From: a virus
Virus record (IMG/VR): IMGVR_UViG_3300047357_000359
Coordinates: 9,728-73,727 of that record
Length of the DNA: 64,000 bases
Strand: one strand, 5' to 3'
Shown here piece by piece: positions 17,463 through 23,608 of the stretch (positions are counted from its first letter, which is position 1; each line of letters opens with the position of its first letter). The notes below the pieces were generated by a model, which was given only the letters and a program-made list of their open reading frames with translations, was not told where the DNA came from and did no database searches. Position numbers and translations under genes: made by a program.

Positions 17463-17830
17463 AGTTTAATTTCTGTTAAACCATTTTCCCTATCAAGGTA
17501 TTTAAAATCTATCTTGGTAGGGTTATATTTTTGCAACCAATCAAATACTATATTAGGATCAAATACTCCGCAAGTATATACATCAAGTTGTATCATAGCA
17601 GGATCTGTTTCATCCCATGTGTGTATTATAACATGACTAGTTTCTATAATAGTAGCAACAGTCAACCCTCTATTACCTTTCATATTACAATATTTGGCAT
17701 ATGGTCCCATTAGGATCTTCATACCTATTGCTTCTATCAAGGCTTTTACATCATTACTTGTAAGGGTTTCATCTGTTGGCGGATTAGTAACTTCCGCTCG
17801 AATTATCACATGTTTGTGAACTAACTGCAT
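17459..17830 (-). CDS. speD: S-adenosylmethionine decarboxylase proenzyme
   Basis: GLT..IIETSH..IHTWDE..QLDVYTC. Confidence 0.85.
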   Translation of the reverse strand: MQLVHKHVIIRAEVTNPPTDETLTSNDVKALIEAIGMKILMGPYAKYCNMKGNRGLTVATIIETSHVIIHTWDETDPAMIQLDVYTCGVFDPNIVFDWLQKYNPTKIDFKYLDRENGLTEIKL

Positions 17831-17892
17831 TTATGTCAGAGTTATTTATAACAAAGTTCTAATAAATACTCATATTACTGAGAGGGAAAACG

Positions 17893-18687
17893 ATGATACC
17901 AGAACAAGGGATTATGACTATGAACTTCAAGCAAAGAAGTTTATTGTTTGCAAAAATAAGCCAAATTGCTTACTTAAATAAAGCCAATGCTACAAAGCAG
18001 GCTAAAAAAATAGGTTTTACAACTGTAGAGTACTACGATGTAAAAGGAGCTCAATCTTACCGTTTTATGAATAAACGTGATTTAGTTATAGCTTGTAGGG
18101 GAACAGAGCCAACACAATATGCTGATATTAAAGCTGATGCCAATGCATTGCCAGTTATAGCAGAAACAGTTAGTAGAGTACACAAAGGATTCAAAGGGCA
18201 AGTAGACGAGCTATGGCCAGCTATTAGAGAAGACTTAACTCGTACACAAAATAAAAATAAAGATGTGTGGTTTACAGGACACAGTTTAGGAGCGGCAATG
18301 GCAACTATTATGGCTAGTCGTTGTATGTTCTTTGAGCTAGTACCTAACCCAGAAGAACTTTACACATACGGATCACCAAGAGTAGGTTGGAAAGGTTACG
18401 TTGATAGTTTAGGCATTACCCATCATCGTTGGAAGAACAATAACGATATAGTAACAACTGTTCCTCTTGCAATTATGGGTTTCAAACATCACGGAACTAT
18501 GCACTACCTAAACAGTTATGGAAATGTACGTAGACCTACTGGTTGGCAAATGATTAAAGATAGATTACGTGGCATGTGGACAGGAATCAAAAAAGGAAAA
18601 ATAGATAACTTTTCAGATCATTTGATTCATAACTACATTGAACATTTACAAAACTACAAAGACGGAAAAGAAAACCCACAAAAATAA
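17893..18687 (+). CDS. class 3 lipase
   Basis: ACRGT, VHKGF, TGHSLG, YTYGSPRVG, NNDIV..VP. Confidence 0.9.
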   Translation: MIPEQGIMTMNFKQRSLLFAKISQIAYLNKANATKQAKKIGFTTVEYYDVKGAQSYRFMNKRDLVIACRGTEPTQYADIKADANALPVIAETVSRVHKGFKGQVDELWPAIREDLTRTQNKNKDVWFTGHSLGAAMATIMASRCMFFELVPNPEELYTYGSPRVGWKGYVDSLGITHHRWKNNNDIVTTVPLAIMGFKHHGTMHYLNSYGNVRRPTGWQMIKDRLRGMWTGIKKGKIDNFSDHLIHNYIEHLQNYKDGKENPQK

Positions 18688-18690
18688 AAT

Positions 18691-18879
18691 ATGACTCGTA
18701 AAACAAATACCATGTTGATAGGCCTACTTGGTACTATACTTCTAGGCTTAGCTTCATGGACATTGATTACATTGATGGAGTTACAGATACTAGTTAGTAT
18801 GATTGAACAAGACCTAATAAGTATTGACAAACAGTTTGGTCGTGTGTACAACTTTATAGATAGTATTAGACAACGTTAA
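18691..18879 (+). CDS. small membrane protein
   Basis: TM plus short coiled coil. Confidence 0.55.
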   Translation: MTRKTNTMLIGLLGTILLGLASWTLITLMELQILVSMIEQDLISIDKQFGRVYNFIDSIRQR

Positions 18880-18881
18880 GT

Positions 18882-18955
18882 TGGCATAGGTGGAGGGAAT
18901 CGAACCCCCATTAACTGGTTTGGAATCAGTTGTGTTACCATTACACCACACCCAT
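18882..18955 (-). tRNA. tRNA-Trp(CCA)
   Basis: Cloverleaf; anticodon loop TT-CCA-AA; GTTCGATTC; encoded CCA. Confidence 0.9.
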
Positions 18956-18990
18956 AAAAAAAGCCCCTAATAAAATTAATTACTAGGGGC
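18956..18990 (-). terminator. attenuator terminator immediately 5' of tRNA-Trp
   Basis: GCCCCTAGTA/TATTAGGGGC followed by T7. Confidence 0.8.
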
Positions 18991-19021
18991 TTCGCAATAT
19001 AACTTTTTTTAGAAAGTCACA

Positions 19022-19075
19022 TCAAGACATACCCCTCAAGGGCCAACATAATTGTGTTCTGATAGTCTTTGACAT
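19022..19075 (-). CDS. putative Trp leader peptide MSKTIRTQLCWPLRGMS
   Basis: 17 codons, AGGA upstream, own promoter; its 3' part can pair with the terminator 5' arm. Confidence 0.6.
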   Translation of the reverse strand: MSKTIRTQLCWPLRGMS

Positions 19076-19110
19076 GTTTGAAATTTTCCTGTGTTCTTAG
19101 TTATACATAT

Positions 19111-19139
19111 AATATAACATCTGTATTTAGTGTTGTCAA
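19111..19139 (-). promoter_or_regulatory. sigma70-type promoter with embedded TAAATA
   Basis: TTGACA-N17-TATATT on the minus strand. Confidence 0.7.
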
Positions 19140-19516
19140 CCTTTTATTTTAGATTTATAATCTTTTATTGCAGATTTAATTGCATCTTCGGCTAGAACTG
19201 AACAATGTATTTTAACTGGCGGTAATGCAAGTTCTTCTACAATGTCCATATTCTTTACTGCTGATGCTTCGTCTAGTGTCATACCTTTAACCATCTCAGT
19301 TACTAAACTTGAACTTGCTATTGCACTACCGCAACCATAAGTTTTAAATTTAGCATCTGTTATTATACCTTCTTCAACTTCTATCTGTAGACGCATAACA
19401 TCACCACATGCTGGTGCACCTACCATTCCTGTTCCTATATTATCTTTCTTTGGATCAAATGTTCCGACGTTGCGTGGGTTTTCGTAATGGTCAAGTACCT
19501 TTTCAGAGTATGCCAT
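19136..19516 (-). CDS. iscU: Fe-S cluster scaffold IscU
   Basis: MAYSEKVLDHYENPRNVG, GAPACGDVM, FKTYGCGSAIASSS, LPPVKIHCSVLAEDA. Confidence 0.95.
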   Translation of the reverse strand: MAYSEKVLDHYENPRNVGTFDPKKDNIGTGMVGAPACGDVMRLQIEVEEGIITDAKFKTYGCGSAIASSSLVTEMVKGMTLDEASAVKNMDIVEELALPPVKIHCSVLAEDAIKSAIKDYKSKIKG

Positions 19517-19559
19517 ATTAGCCTCGTGTAGTTATACTACATCTATTTATAACTTATAT

Positions 19560-19659
19560 TGGCTCTGGGGGAAGGACTCGAACCTCCACGATAAATAATT
19601 TGCCGTCATTTACCACACGAGAAACAATCGTGCGTGTCTACCAATTTCACCACCCCAGA
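19560..19659 (-). tRNA. non-canonical class II tRNA with GTT (Asn) anticodon and 9-bp variable arm
   Basis: 7-bp acceptor TCTGGGG/CCCCAGA, G73, CCA; Leu-like D arm; loop TT-GTT-TC; T arm GGAGG-TTCGAGT-CCTTC. Confidence 0.8.
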
Positions 19660-19665
19660 TTATTC

Positions 19666-20496
19666 TTATACTTTGTTAATCTTTTCTAGTGCAGGAATCA
19701 TACGTGTTATACCTATGCCTCCGCCTACTCTTTGAAAGAAGTCAAACTCTAAGAACTTTTCTAGTTCCGCTTCAACTCTTTCCTTACCGAATAGTTTGAA
19801 TAGTAACTCTGAATAAGCACCGTCTGTAATACTATGGAATGTATCACGCATCATATCAACATCACATGAACGTTCTGCTGATCCAATAGTTTCCATACCA
19901 CCTAGTATAACGTCCATCTTCTTTGCAGTATTTCCGTCATCGTTTCTAGCCATGTTCCAGAAAGGTGATGTTAGTTCAGGGAAGTTTGTAATAAGTGTTT
20001 GACCAAACTCTTTTTCCATTGCAAGTTCGTGTTCTGCTTCCATTTCTGTATCAGCACTTAGTCCAAAGTGTTGTTGCCATTCAGCATAAGTCTTTTCTGT
20101 AATGTTGCCAAAGCCTAAGTATTCACATAGTTCATACTCCATTGCTTTTAGATCATCTACATTACCTGGCATTTCAAATTCAAACATTGGAAATATTATA
20201 TCATGTCTGCCTGGTATTGCGTTTGGTTCCTGTCTATAGGAAGTGGAGACACAAAAAAACCCCTTACTATCGGGGCTACTTAATAATTCATGTTCTAACC
20301 ACATCTGGCCTGTTTGCGGCAATGGCCAAACCTGGCCTGCGTAATTGTATGTTGCTACATTGAATGGATCTTCACATGCGGCAAGTATGCTTAGTCTGTT
20401 TTGGGTATGGACTTCTAAAAATCCTTTATCCAAAAAAAATGACCTTAAAAGGCCAACTGTCTTCGTAAATTTATTTGGGGATATCAACTGCGTCAT
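19666..20496 (-). CDS. class IIb aaRS catalytic core (AsnRS/AspRS-like, no anticodon-binding domain; AsnRS2/AS-AR-like)
   Basis: Motif 1 RSFFLDKGFLEVHT, motif 2 YRQE..GRH..F.MFEFE, motif 3 GGGIGITRM; 276 aa. Confidence 0.85.
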   Translation of the reverse strand: MTQLISPNKFTKTVGLLRSFFLDKGFLEVHTQNRLSILAACEDPFNVATYNYAGQVWPLPQTGQMWLEHELLSSPDSKGFFCVSTSYRQEPNAIPGRHDIIFPMFEFEMPGNVDDLKAMEYELCEYLGFGNITEKTYAEWQQHFGLSADTEMEAEHELAMEKEFGQTLITNFPELTSPFWNMARNDDGNTAKKMDVILGGMETIGSAERSCDVDMMRDTFHSITDGAYSELLFKLFGKERVEAELEKFLEFDFFQRVGGGIGITRMIPALEKINKV

Positions 20497-20550
20497 TTTC
20501 TTTTTTTCCTTTTCATTAGTCAAAAAAAATTTGCTCAACAAGTGCCGAGC

Positions 20551-20721
20551 TTAATTTTCCTTCTCATTATTTATCCTCGCGCCTCCTGTTTTGCCGCAAT
20601 GCGGACAATGGAAAGTGTAACGTTCAATACGTAACTTTTCTTCCATTGTCGCATAGGTGAACCAGTTAGAACAACTAGTGCAAGTTAAATGCCATATGAT
20701 CTCTTTAACAGCATTAAACAT
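20551..20721 (-). CDS. 56-aa zinc-ribbon protein
   Basis: Manually translated; CTSC...CPHC. Confidence 0.6.
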   Translation of the reverse strand: MFNAVKEIIWHLTCTSCSNWFTYATMEEKLRIERYTFHCPHCGKTGGARINNEKEN

Positions 20722-20883
20722 CTAATCTTGTAATCCTATACAAGGAATAAGAATAGATTGCTTACAGTTATCTGGATAAGCAATAGCTGAACCAAGTATA
20801 GGCATACCTACCATACCAATAATGATAATCAAGAACGCCCATCCTAGTCCTTTTAGTGTGCAATAATTAGTTTGCTCACTCAT
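20722..20883 (-). CDS. small membrane protein
   Basis: TM plus Cys pair; overlaps the upstream stop. Confidence 0.55.
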   Translation of the reverse strand: MSEQTNYCTLKGLGWAFLIIIIGMVGMPILGSAIAYPDNCKQSILIPCIGLQD

Positions 20884-21169
20884 GTTCGCCACCTGCTCCG
20901 CGACCAAAGCCGCCAAAGTACTCTGGCTTACGTTTTGCAGTTTCAAATGTTGCAACAGTGACCGCTATGGCACCAAGTAATAATGTGTGTAGTACCATAC
21001 TGAACACACCCATGTACATGCTACCTACAATGATACCAAATACTGTACACCACATCCATGCAAGAACTTGCATAATCATATGTCGTGTACTAAAGTCTGG
21101 AATAACACTTAACGGATTCTTTTCATGATCCATTACTACATTCCAACTGTCGTATACCCATTTCCTCAT
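20876..21169 (-). CDS. conserved marine-phage membrane protein
   Basis: W..VMD..KNPL..IPD...RHMIMQVLAWMWC; AGGAG RBS. Confidence 0.65.
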   Translation of the reverse strand: MRKWVYDSWNVVMDHEKNPLSVIPDFSTRHMIMQVLAWMWCTVFGIIVGSMYMGVFSMVLHTLLLGAIAVTVATFETAKRKPEYFGGFGRGAGGEHE

Positions 21170-21240
21170 AAGAGTCTCCTTTTGCTTGTCTATACGTACG
21201 ACTAATGTAACATAGGAATTGACGGTTGTCAACCTAAAAG

Positions 21241-21316
21241 TGGTGCCGGCACACGGACTCGAACCGCGGACCTACTGATTACAAATCAGTTGCTCTACCA
21301 ACTGAGCTATGCCGGC
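21241..21316 (-). tRNA. tRNA-Thr(TGT)
   Basis: Canonical cloverleaf with CCA. Confidence 0.95.
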
Positions 21317-21318
21317 CT

Positions 21319-21392
21319 TGGAGCGGGTGAGGAGAATCGAACTCCTATCATTAGCTTGGAAGGCTAAGGTCTTACCATTACACAACACCCGC
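21319..21392 (-). tRNA. tRNA-Gly(TCC)
   Basis: Canonical cloverleaf, U73, CCA. Confidence 0.95.
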
Positions 21393-21499
21393 TCATGTGT
21401 TTAATATACATACTATATAGCATGTGTTCGGCTTAGTCAATCTCTTTATGAACAAGTTTGTTTATTTCTTTACTAAATACAACATAGGAACTGGATAAT

Positions 21500-21775
21500 A
21501 TGAGAAAACGTACAAGATCAATACTAGAAGAACTTAGTAGCTTTAGACAAACTACAGACAATGAAGCACTCGTACAAACTACGGGTAATAACCTTATTGA
21601 AAGTTCTATTAACTTACTTAATCGCATTGCAGAACAATACGATGCTGAAACTGCTTCGGACTTAGAAAGACGATTCATTAACAGTATACGTAGTGGCGAC
21701 CCTCGCAAGTTCAAACGTGGTGTAGATAAAATTGTTGAATCACGCAACAAAAAGGATACAAACAATGATTCTTAA
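21500..21775 (+). CDS. hypothetical late protein
   Basis: TAAATA promoter; first gene of the late block. Confidence 0.7.
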   Translation: MRKRTRSILEELSSFRQTTDNEALVQTTGNNLIESSINLLNRIAEQYDAETASDLERRFINSIRSGDPRKFKRGVDKIVESRNKKDTNNDS

Positions 21776-22469
21776 TGAAGGCGGAAACATATTCAAAGAT
21801 CCAGAGACTAAAGAACCTGTAACACAGCGTATCAATCAAGCTGACGTTGATCCTACACTTGCATGGTTAGAAAAGATTACAGGACTACCACATAAAGATT
21901 TTAAATTAGGTAGCACAGGAATTAGAAGTACAAGTGGCGATATGGATATTGCTGTTAACCAAGATGAAGTTACCAAAGATGAAATGGTTGCTAAACTTGC
22001 GGCATGGGTACAAAAGAATCACCCAGGAGACGATCTTAAAAAATGGATTAGAAAAAGTGGCATCAACGTACACTTCCTAACTCCAATCAATGGCAACCCT
22101 GAAGAAGGCTATGTACAAACAGATTTAATGTTTGGTGAGCCTGAGTTCATGAAGTTCGCACTCAAAGGCAGTGGCGACAACACACCATACAAAGGACAAC
22201 ATAGAATGATCCTTATTAGCAGTATTGCTAAAGCACAAGGATACAAGTTTAGTAGTGGAGCAGGATTAGTAGATAGAATTACAAATCAAACTATATCTAA
22301 AAACCCAGATGAGATTGCAAAAACATTAATGGGCGATACTGCTACAGCAAAAGATATGGATAGTGTTGAAACAATCATTGCAAAAATTAAAACAGACCCT
22401 AACTACGAAAACTTAGTTAAAGACGCTAGAGACAACTTCGAAAAGAACGGACTAGAGTTACCCAAATGA
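21765..22469 (+). CDS. Pol-beta-superfamily nucleotidyltransferase-like protein
   Basis: LGSTG...SGDMDIAV and VQTDLM; N-terminal ILNE. Confidence 0.6.
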   Translation: MILNEGGNIFKDPETKEPVTQRINQADVDPTLAWLEKITGLPHKDFKLGSTGIRSTSGDMDIAVNQDEVTKDEMVAKLAAWVQKNHPGDDLKKWIRKSGINVHFLTPINGNPEEGYVQTDLMFGEPEFMKFALKGSGDNTPYKGQHRMILISSIAKAQGYKFSSGAGLVDRITNQTISKNPDEIAKTLMGDTATAKDMDSVETIIAKIKTDPNYENLVKDARDNFEKNGLELPK

Positions 22470-23608
22470 GATTTAACGAAATAATAAACGAAGCAGAAGC
22501 TCGAATACAACATGCTGAAGACTTAATCTTCTTCCATGGTAGTGCAGGTGCCAAACGTGCATTGGATTCAATTGCCAGCATGGGTACAGGAGGACATACT
22601 AATGCAACAATTAAATGGGATGGATCTCCCGCAGTCATTTTTGGCCGCGATGAAAATGGAGAGTTCATACTTACAGACAAGTCAGGCTTTGGTGCAAAAG
22701 GATACGACGGCAAATCAAAAAGTGCTGATGACCTTGAGCAAATGTTCCTCAACCGTAGTGGTGGAAAGAACAGAGATAAACCAGGCTATGTAGCATTCGC
22801 AGGTAGAATGAAAGCTCTGTTTCCTATTGCAGAAAAAGCTGTTCCAATTGAACACAGAGGATTCTTTAAAGGCGACATGCTTTACTTTGATACACCAACT
22901 AACAACAAAGGCGTATTACAGTTTACTCCTAACACAGTAACTTACACAGTACAAGCAGACAGCGATGTAGGTAAGAAGATACTAGCAAGTCAAGCTGGTG
23001 TAGTTATTCACAGAGTAGTAGATGCGGCAGGTGCTGAAAGTCCTTTAAAAGATTACGACATGTTCCAAGGATCAAAACTATTAGTGTTACCTCCAGTAGT
23101 TGCACAAACGGCTCCAGAGGTTGACCTAACTAAACTAAAAAGTTTACAAGGTGTTGTTGCTAAGAATGGTCCTGCTATTGATAGTCTGTTAGACACAGCT
23201 ACATTACAGCAAATGCAAGTTAGTGACTTTGCACAAATACTTTATGCTTATACAAATAGTAAAGTAGACTCAGGATTAGCCAACTTAGGTAAAGACTTTG
23301 TACAATGGTTAACAACTAGCAAAGTATCTAAGAAGAAACAAGCAAAAATTATTGAGTATATTAAAACGCACATGAAGGCGTTTCAGGCAATGTGGCAAAC
23401 TGTTTCAGGGATAATGGAAGTCAAGGACGACATTATTACACAAATGGAAAGCAAACAAACAGACATTAAGGCATCTATCGCAGGGAAGCCAGGTGGCGAG
23501 GGCTATGTATTAGCCAACCCAGGCGGCGATATTAAATTAGTAAACCGCTCTGAATTTAGTAAAGCTAACAGAGCAATTAAACGGGAGAGTAAACATGAAA
23601 GCATCTGA
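22466..23608 (+). CDS. RNA/DNA-ligase-fold protein (DUF6267-like)
   Basis: Motif I TIKWDGS, FKGD, GEGYV, IKLVNR. Confidence 0.6.
   Translation: MRFNEIINEAEARIQHAEDLIFFHGSAGAKRALDSIASMGTGGHTNATIKWDGSPAVIFGRDENGEFILTDKSGFGAKGYDGKSKSADDLEQMFLNRSGGKNRDKPGYVAFAGRMKALFPIAEKAVPIEHRGFFKGDMLYFDTPTNNKGVLQFTPNTVTYTVQADSDVGKKILASQAGVVIHRVVDAAGAESPLKDYDMFQGSKLLVLPPVVAQTAPEVDLTKLKSLQGVVAKNGPAIDSLLDTATLQQMQVSDFAQILYAYTNSKVDSGLANLGKDFVQWLTTSKVSKKKQAKIIEYIKTHMKAFQAMWQTVSGIMEVKDDIITQMESKQTDIKASIAGKPGGEGYVLANPGGDIKLVNRSEFSKANRAIKRESKHESI

Follow-up and report, generated by a model that had tools for sequence, protein, structure and literature searches.

The locus described here, from an uncultured marine phage, raises the question of what governs the expression of a phage tRNA gene that lies directly behind a short open reading frame and a transcription terminator. 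The presence of tRNA genes in phages is commonly attributed to codon usage or to the replacement of host tRNAs that are lost in infection, and to our knowledge almost nothing is known about how such genes are regulated. A preliminary description of the window (the whole 64,000-nucleotide stretch of viral DNA that was analysed) had proposed that a Trp leader-peptide attenuator controls its tRNA-Trp gene. We followed this proposal from the anatomy of the unit and its relatives, via the RNA structures that the leader can form, to the codons that it carries.

The tRNA-Trp unit and its family

The unit runs on the minus strand throughout and starts with a sigma-70-type promoter, TTGACA-N17-TATATT with a TG extension (19139-19111; 11 of 12 consensus matches), which is dedicated to the leader and consists of a -35 box TTGACA (19139-19134), a spacer of 17 nt and a -10 box TATATT (19116-19111). 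This promoter is followed by a Shine-Dalgarno-like AGGA (19090-19087), 11 nt 5′ of the ATG (in the family usually about 8 nt), and by a leader uORF of 17 codons plus TGA (MSKTIRTQLCWPLRGMS*; 19075-19022) that contains a Cys codon TGT (19048-19046) and a Trp codon TGG (19045-19043). Downstream of the uORF, an intrinsic terminator (18993-18956) combines a stem of 14 pairs (GAAGCCCCUAGUAA / UUAUUAGGGGCUUU; 18993-18960) with a U7 tract (18962-18956), and position 1 of tRNA-Trp(CCA), the CCA of which is encoded (18955-18882; Rfam tRNA, 62 bits), lies one base beyond that U-tract. Because the tRNA is followed by convergent genes on the plus strand, tRNA-Trp is the sole gene of the unit. The promoter, the uORF with its one TGG, the terminator with its T7 and the adjacent tRNA-Trp were indeed all found where the preliminary description had placed them, and we regard it as likely that promoter, leader-peptide attenuator and tRNA-Trp make up a self-contained transcription unit.

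Directly upstream is a gene for an IscU/NifU-type Fe-S scaffold (19516-19136, minus strand), the stop of which overlaps the leader promoter in its -35 box. IscU relatives at 77-95% identity occur in more than 590 IMG/VR stretches, most of them without a nearby tRNA. Just downstream of the iscU of one relative lies a permuted tmRNA (L010:3420-3794; tag ANNNYAPEMALAA), which matches the tmRNA features that, together with glutamine-riboswitch features, have been reported for Melnitz-like phages and pelagimyophages (PMC9004378). Elsewhere in the window, a 100-nt tRNA (19659-19560, minus strand), read by ARAGORN as Glu-CUC and alternatively readable as Asn-GUU with a giant variable arm, comes after an AsnA/AsnRS-core-like ORF (20541-19666, minus strand; PHROG 29758, E 1e-128). 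A tRNA-Gly(UCC)/tRNA-Thr(UGU) pair (21392-21241, minus strand) has a plain promoter, TTGACT-N17-TATAGT (21440-21412), 19 nt upstream and carries neither a uORF nor a terminator, leaving tRNA-Trp as the only tRNA of the window under putative attenuator control.

Two pattern scans of IMG/VR viral contigs, one keyed on the terminator and the other on the hairpin between uORF and terminator (hairpin 2), yielded 71 distinct copies of the leader, so that the arrangement of a conserved Trp uORF and terminator before tRNA-Trp recurs in related phages. A covariance model built from this family detected 98 copies among 100 loci, each locus holding at most one, with scores of 77-159 bits. It scored the window copy at 111 bits (E 2e-19) as the only strong copy in its own 73.7-kb record, and this score together with the single strong copy indicates that the leader is more than a chance match. 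Searching with the neighbouring IscU likewise reached loci with the identical promoter-uORF-terminator-tRNA-Trp module, two of them behind different upstream genes. Among the loci found in this way, the leader directly preceded tRNA-Trp in all six that held a tRNA-Trp, and it was absent as well from the two checked loci that lacked one (L007 and L008).

Across the family, a sigma-70-type promoter with at least 10 of 12 matches was present in 65 of 70 copies, the spacer being 17 nt in 64 copies and the end of the -10 box mostly falling 26-35 nt before the start codon. The first gene past the terminator was tRNA-Trp in 68 of the 71 copies, the three without a tRNA-Trp call being due to the end of a contig or, probably, to tRNAs that ARAGORN overlooked. 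The distance from the end of the U-tract to position 1 of the tRNA is 1-3 nt in most copies, which leaves no room for a second promoter. Behind the leader, arrays of one to six tRNAs always begin with tRNA-Trp, and its commonest companions in the 66 complete arrays were Cys (32), Pro (30), Ser (12) and Ile-UAU (9 by anticodon, or 10 when Ile(GAU) is counted too).

Two variations of the tRNA end were observed. About a quarter of the family carries a conserved insert of 80-95 nt between the U-tract and tRNA-Trp (e.g. L006:2609-2690; also in L095, L104, L124, L128, L149, L169, L180, L181, L212, L214, L219, L231, L233, L236, L242, L258 and L261). Neither ARAGORN nor Rfam called this insert, the fold of which (-29.9 kcal/mol, z -3.55) is a cloverleaf-like four-way junction that is closed by a stem of 10 bp and bears three hairpins. 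It may represent a degenerated tRNA-like element that serves processing or stability. In L088, L096, L108, L133, L169 and L183, the usual 74-nt tRNA-Trp is replaced by a first tRNA of 84-88 nt with anticodon CCA (position 36, ARAGORN). Between the terminator and the start of this putative tRNA-Trp lie about 13-29 nt, or about 98 nt in the case of L169, and the tRNA possibly contains an insert or a long variable arm.

The uORF itself was open with TGG in frame in 71 of 71 distinct copies, all of which have an AAGGA-type Shine-Dalgarno before the start codon (ATG in 52, GTG in 19). Its length ranges from 17 to 22 codons, its stop (UGA in 52 copies, UAA in 19) is at a fixed place in 70 of 71, and the distances from ATG to TGG (27, 30, 33 or 36 nt) and from TGG to the stop (21, 24, 27 or 30 nt) vary only in steps of 3 nt, all uORF indels across the 71 copies being multiples of 3. 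Since an untranslated RNA is unlikely to be so confined, this strict pattern and the Shine-Dalgarno indicate that the uORF is read by ribosomes. The leader peptide is not conserved: most residues vary, and the frame in which the motif AUACAACA is read differs between the ATG and the GTG class. Judging from this pattern, selection acts on translation itself and not on the peptide. The UGG is invariant in all 71 copies with variable flanks (11 different preceding codons and 22 following pairs), and as the only Trp codon of the leader it implies a lower sensitivity than tandem control codons would give.

Competing helices and ribosome positions

Folding of the leader revealed a helix, referred to here as P1, that the preliminary description had missed. 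P1 joins the start-codon region (19076-19065) to the stop-codon region (19028-19018), with CAUG and the next 8 nt pairing with GUCUUGA and the next 4 nt at the end of the uORF. Segment 1 (CAUGUCAAAGAC; 19076-19065), with the start codon inside, forms the 5′ arm of the outer part of P1. Segment 2 (AGGGGUAUGUCUUGAUGUG; 19036-19018), with the stop codon inside, is the most invariant stretch of the alignment and has a dual role, as it can serve either as the 3′ arm of P1 or as the 5′ arm of the antiterminator. Within P1, the inner GGGG of segment 2 pairs with CCC, and the outer GUCUUGAUGUG with the start region. An alternative pairing just after the Trp codon had been proposed earlier, and its CCC does pair, the CCC-TTGA-GGG hairpin being seen in the whole-leader fold, but the main competitor of GGGGUAUGUCUUGA turned out to be the start-codon region.

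Register shifts between the leader classes made RNAalifold on MAFFT sub-alignments uninformative, and the structures were tested as explicit structures and as cognate versus non-cognate duplexes. In P1, the first base of the start codon (pair 15:90) and a base after the stop form A-U in 52 copies and G-C in 19 and are never unpaired, and the exchange of G and A at the second position of the stop codon is accompanied by an exchange of C and U in codon 2 or 3. Cognate P1 duplexes averaged -12.4 kcal/mol against -10.0 for non-cognate ones, and cognate terminators -17.8 against -15.7, none of 2000 permutations being as good in either case. The terminator had 97% of its cells paired, with five pairs in which both sides had changed. 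For the complete 'off' structure (P1, the CC.CC:GGGG hairpin and the terminator), 92% of the cells were paired, and 11 pairs had changed on both sides versus 4.1 in shuffles (0/500).

The antiterminator is a single long helix from AGGGGU to GCCCCU (19036-18985) with hairpin 2 (GAUGUGACUUU / AAAGUUAUAUU) at its tip. The pairing of AGGGGT (19036-31) with GCCCCT (18990-85), as originally described, was recovered in the minimum-energy fold of 19036-18985 (-19.4 kcal/mol). Throughout the family, GGGG:CCCC closes the long helix in 69 of 71 copies at a mean of -18.9 kcal/mol, next to a mean of -17.6 for the terminator hairpin. When the linker that joins hairpin 2 to the terminator was shuffled, this mean shifted to -13.9, a loss of 5 kcal/mol, and 88.6% of the antiterminator cells were paired versus at most 66% when the partners were slid. 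Covariation of the antiterminator did not exceed that of shuffles in the 71-copy family, because both of its strands are nearly invariant; it is conservation and energy that suggest its existence. P1 (-19.2 kcal/mol) and the antiterminator (-18.9) are moreover nearly isoenergetic, which fits the expectation for a switch.

Some of the leader codons take part in these structures as well. A small hairpin, P1a, takes up the UG of UGG and covaries with the codon before UGG, and the C-run with which GGGG pairs is provided by Pro codons. Part of the 'C-W-P' conservation may thus be due to RNA structure.

To place the ribosome on these structures, a footprint of -15 to +12 was masked around each A-site codon and the nascent RNA was folded up to the terminator loop. 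In this model, the consensus copy (L217) keeps GGGG:CCCC with stalls at codons 1-12 and loses it from codon 13 on, so that UGG, as codon 12, is the last position at which a stall is permissive. Permissive stalls reach through W, C and P in the W-C-P class (L088), and in every case the antiterminator is blocked once the ribosome has reached the stop codon. The preliminary description had considered that a ribosome stalled at TGG might occlude AGGGGT. This holds in the model for the window copy, where the spacer between UGG and GGGG is only 7 nt, a Trp stall covers GGGG and stalls are permissive only up to the Cys codon. It does not hold for consensus copies, since the 7-nt spacer is unique to the window copy and the rest of the family has 9-16 nt. 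As the edge of the footprint is uncertain by a few nucleotides, the window copy is probably best seen as borderline rather than refuted. The ribosome-free equilibrium folds of the window and L088 leaders contained the antiterminator and not P1, indicating that the off-state needs kinetic, co-transcriptional folding in which P1 forms first.

These structures suggest the following switch. Host RNA polymerase would start at the sigma-70-type promoter, and a host ribosome would load on the 17-22-codon uORF. In P1, the start-codon region and the C-rich codons past UGG would pair with GGGGUAUGUCUUGA; in the antiterminator, GGGGUAUGUCUU from the same segment would pair with AAGAYAAGCCCC around hairpin 2; and in the terminator, AGCCCCUAG would pair with CUAGGGGCU, followed by U7, so that P1 would exclude the antiterminator and the antiterminator the terminator. 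A ribosome reaching the stop codon would cover GGGGUAUGUCUU, upon which the terminator would form and no tRNA would be made. Without translation, P1 would hold GGGGUAUGUCUU and lead to termination likewise, provided that it forms first. A stall at or before UGG, when the decoding tRNA is short, would break P1 and set GGGG free, and the free GGGG would let the antiterminator form first and the polymerase read into the tRNA genes. RNase P would then free the tRNAs from the leader precursor, and the new tRNA-Trp would relieve the stall in the manner of a negative-feedback supply. In relatives, the same loop would also supply tRNAs for Cys, Pro, Ile(UAU), Ser, Gln and Tyr, the codons of which are written in the leader. 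The function of the antiterminator, the direction of the switch and tRNA shortage as its natural signal are predictions of this scheme.

Leader codons and the proposed signal

If the leader senses decoding, its codons might be expected to relate to the tRNAs behind it. For 99 of the 122 non-Trp tRNA types in the 66 complete arrays, the leader of the same array contained a cognate codon, whereas permuting leaders among arrays gave 75.7 +/- 3.5 (maximum 88, with 0 of 5000 permutations reaching 99), shared ancestry being ignored in both counts. Specifically, and again with shared ancestry ignored, AUA was present in the leaders of 9 of 9 arrays with tRNA-Ile(UAU) versus 16 of 57 without, and a Cys codon in 32 of 32 arrays with tRNA-Cys versus 23 of 34 without, while tRNA-Cys occurred behind 32 of 53 leaders with a Cys codon beside the Trp codon and behind 0 of 13 others. 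After phylogenetic correction, the Cys-codon/tRNA-Cys association was represented by two independent pairs, both in the expected direction, on a 170-nt tree too poorly resolved for significance. The leader codons thus appear to track the tRNAs of the array, which argues for codon-specific sensing.

This bears on the possibility that the leader is a general gauge of translation, sensing prompt leader translation as such (e.g. host shut-off or a shortage of ribosomes), with UGG conserved mainly for structural reasons. Such a gauge would agree with the footprint model, in which a stall at any codon from 1 to UGG yields the antiterminator and the UGG of the window copy falls outside the permissive zone, with the pairing of the UG of UGG in P1a, where it covaries with the preceding codon, and with the presence of a single Trp codon. 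However, UGG is retained in 71 of 71 copies despite its variable flanks, tRNA-Trp is always the first tRNA, and the remaining codons of the leader vary with the tRNA content of the array. Moreover, zero translation should favour termination via P1 and not induction. We therefore consider a gauge without Trp specificity unlikely.

There might also be no switch at all, the promoter, uORF and terminator being an independent gene for a micropeptide or for a trans-acting sRNA like rnTrpL, and the tRNAs being made only by constitutive leakage past the terminator or by transcription that reads through from upstream genes. The strength of the terminator (14 pairs and U7) and an antiterminator that lacks covariation support would suit this reading, as would the ability of terminated attenuator RNAs to act in trans, described for Sinorhizobium (PMC6614838). 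Against it stand the unconserved peptide, with its AUACAACA frame differing between the classes, and the constant fusion of the unit to a tRNA-Trp gene so close that a second promoter would not fit. The leader also travels with tRNA-Trp behind different upstream genes, and its codons co-vary with the content of the array. A strong promoter firing only into a terminator before a tRNA would furthermore be wasteful unless read-through is regulated, and we judge this reading to be very improbable.

Finally, we rejected as hardly credible any sensing that bypasses decoding speed, either by a TnaC-like arrest peptide responding to free tryptophan (compatible with the conserved W then P and the UGA stop of 52 of 71 copies) or by T-box-like binding of tRNA-Trp via a UGG located at the junction of two small hairpins, because the former needs a fixed spacing to the peptidyl-transferase centre whereas W and stop are 7-10 codons apart with varying residues between them and a UAA stop in 19 copies, and the latter is contradicted by the lack of an Rfam match to T-box, Trp_leader or any other family and by multiple-of-3 indels and a Shine-Dalgarno that show ribosome reading.

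The proposal of a ribosome-sensed attenuator on the phage tRNA-Trp gene is in this way supported by the reading frame, the order of the tRNAs, the covariation of P1 and the tracking of tRNAs by leader codons, and we think it likely, on these sequence features, that a working ribosome-mediated attenuator gates these phage tRNA genes. With less confidence we hold that a shortage of Trp-tRNA is its only or main natural signal, and the earlier suggestion of a defence nuclease as trigger is pure speculation.

Known systems, occurrence and meaning

An Rfam search of positions 17500-22500 and of one relative, at E up to 10, returned only tRNAs and sub-threshold leader-type noise (at best PyrR with 27.3 bits against a gathering score of 54, PyrG_leader with 26.1 against 65 and L10_leader with 23.6 against 44), with no match to Trp_leader (RF00513) or, at E up to 10, to the T-box. 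The phage leader nevertheless appears to share the design of the ribosome-mediated attenuators (trpL of enterobacteria, his, phe and leu, the multivalent thr and ilvGMEDA leaders, and pheST) that have been described in general terms (PMC1183508). Like trpL, it has a short translated leader ORF with control codons, and it would form three mutually exclusive structures (1:2, 2:3 and 3:4) that end in an intrinsic terminator with a U-tract. As in trpL, a stall at the control codon would free segment 2 for the antiterminator, and a ribosome at the stop codon would cover it. Like the thr and ilv leaders, the leaders of relatives are multivalent. Unlike this class, however, the phage leader would control tRNA genes instead of amino-acid biosynthesis or synthetase genes, so that the product relieving the stall would be the decoder itself. 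It further differs from trpL in being viral, in having one Trp codon rather than tandem ones, in lacking any sequence or Rfam similarity, and in a segment 1 that is mainly the start-codon region, as a consequence of which P1 also hides the start codon.

A full-text literature search found no published attenuator of tRNA genes. The nearest published idea is the trn operon of Anabaena sp. PCC 7120, a long tRNA array that is induced under translational stress (PMC8421152, PMC10272220). Both are supernumerary, horizontally spread tRNA arrays that are silent until translation is impaired, silence in the phage case being predicted. However, the Anabaena array is controlled at its promoter by the repressor TrcR and not by a leader (PMC8421152, PMC10272220), and the words attenuator, leader and terminator are absent from PMC8421152, whereas the phage control would act in cis and codon-specifically through a translated leader and terminator. 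T-box riboswitches resemble the phage leader as cis-acting terminator/antiterminator switches that read the state of a specific tRNA via a codon-like triplet. They differ from it in that they bind uncharged tRNA directly, are untranslated and control synthetase and amino-acid genes, the phage leader of about 110 nt being translated and having neither Stem I nor T-box sequence.

With regard to its origin, NrdA shares 69% identity with its counterparts in marine T4-like cyanophages and in Pelagibacter phage Mosig. The window stretch was present in seawater metagenomes from at least 11 studies. Among metatranscriptome contigs from four studies, one spans the 3′ end of iscU into the leader (19219-19028), and another, from a relative, covers tRNA-Trp and 12 nt of the terminator (18967-18881). 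Such contigs, for which DNA carry-over is possible, give no transcript ends, strand or level. A pattern scan of 185,579 prokaryotic genomes (596 Gb) did not find the leader, its nine matches being due to chance, as none had GGGG, a terminator or a tRNA. When the region, and also the leader by itself, were compared by blastn with 50,697 phage records, no cultured phage was found to carry the leader, the only matches being to iscU, to tRNA-Trp and, in Pelagibacter phage HTVC010P, to a terminator-like stretch of 40 nt. This stretch of the cultured SAR11 podophage (KC465898.1:296-335) is 90% identical to the family terminator (AAGCCCCTAG...TAGGGGCTTTTTT), which means either that the two have a type of terminator in common or that there is a weak hint at the host. 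The covariance model found no copy in the cultured relatives Melnitz (MZ577097) and Mosig (MT647606), a 23-bit match in the latter not being a leader. The leader family is abundant in ocean and lake viromes and absent from Melnitz and Mosig, which may explain why it has been overlooked.

As a leader-peptide attenuator, this element would be the first case of a tRNA gene controlled by the very decoding step that its tRNA performs, in a feedback loop that would need only about 150 nt and no protein. On the sequence pattern of the family, the production of spare tRNAs in these phages is probably limited to times when the corresponding codons are read slowly by ribosomes. Their leaders would name the tRNAs that they treat as limiting, always Trp and then Cys, Pro, Ile-AUA and Ser, and would make it simple to test whether phage tRNAs are a response to the depletion or cleavage of host tRNAs. 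For synthetic biology, the leader would provide a compact, codon-specific sensor of tRNA supply.

We lean slightly towards the broader view that the phages of this T4-like group from marine and fresh waters run a codon-resolved homeostat for their own tRNAs, in which the leader is a programmable 'test message' that is rewritten as tRNAs join or leave the array. If so, each phage would gauge, one ribosome at a time, exactly those decoding steps that its array rescues and would transcribe the array only then, its tRNA genes would be autoregulated through their own decoding activity, and the leaders would form a readout of which host tRNAs are limiting or attacked during infection.
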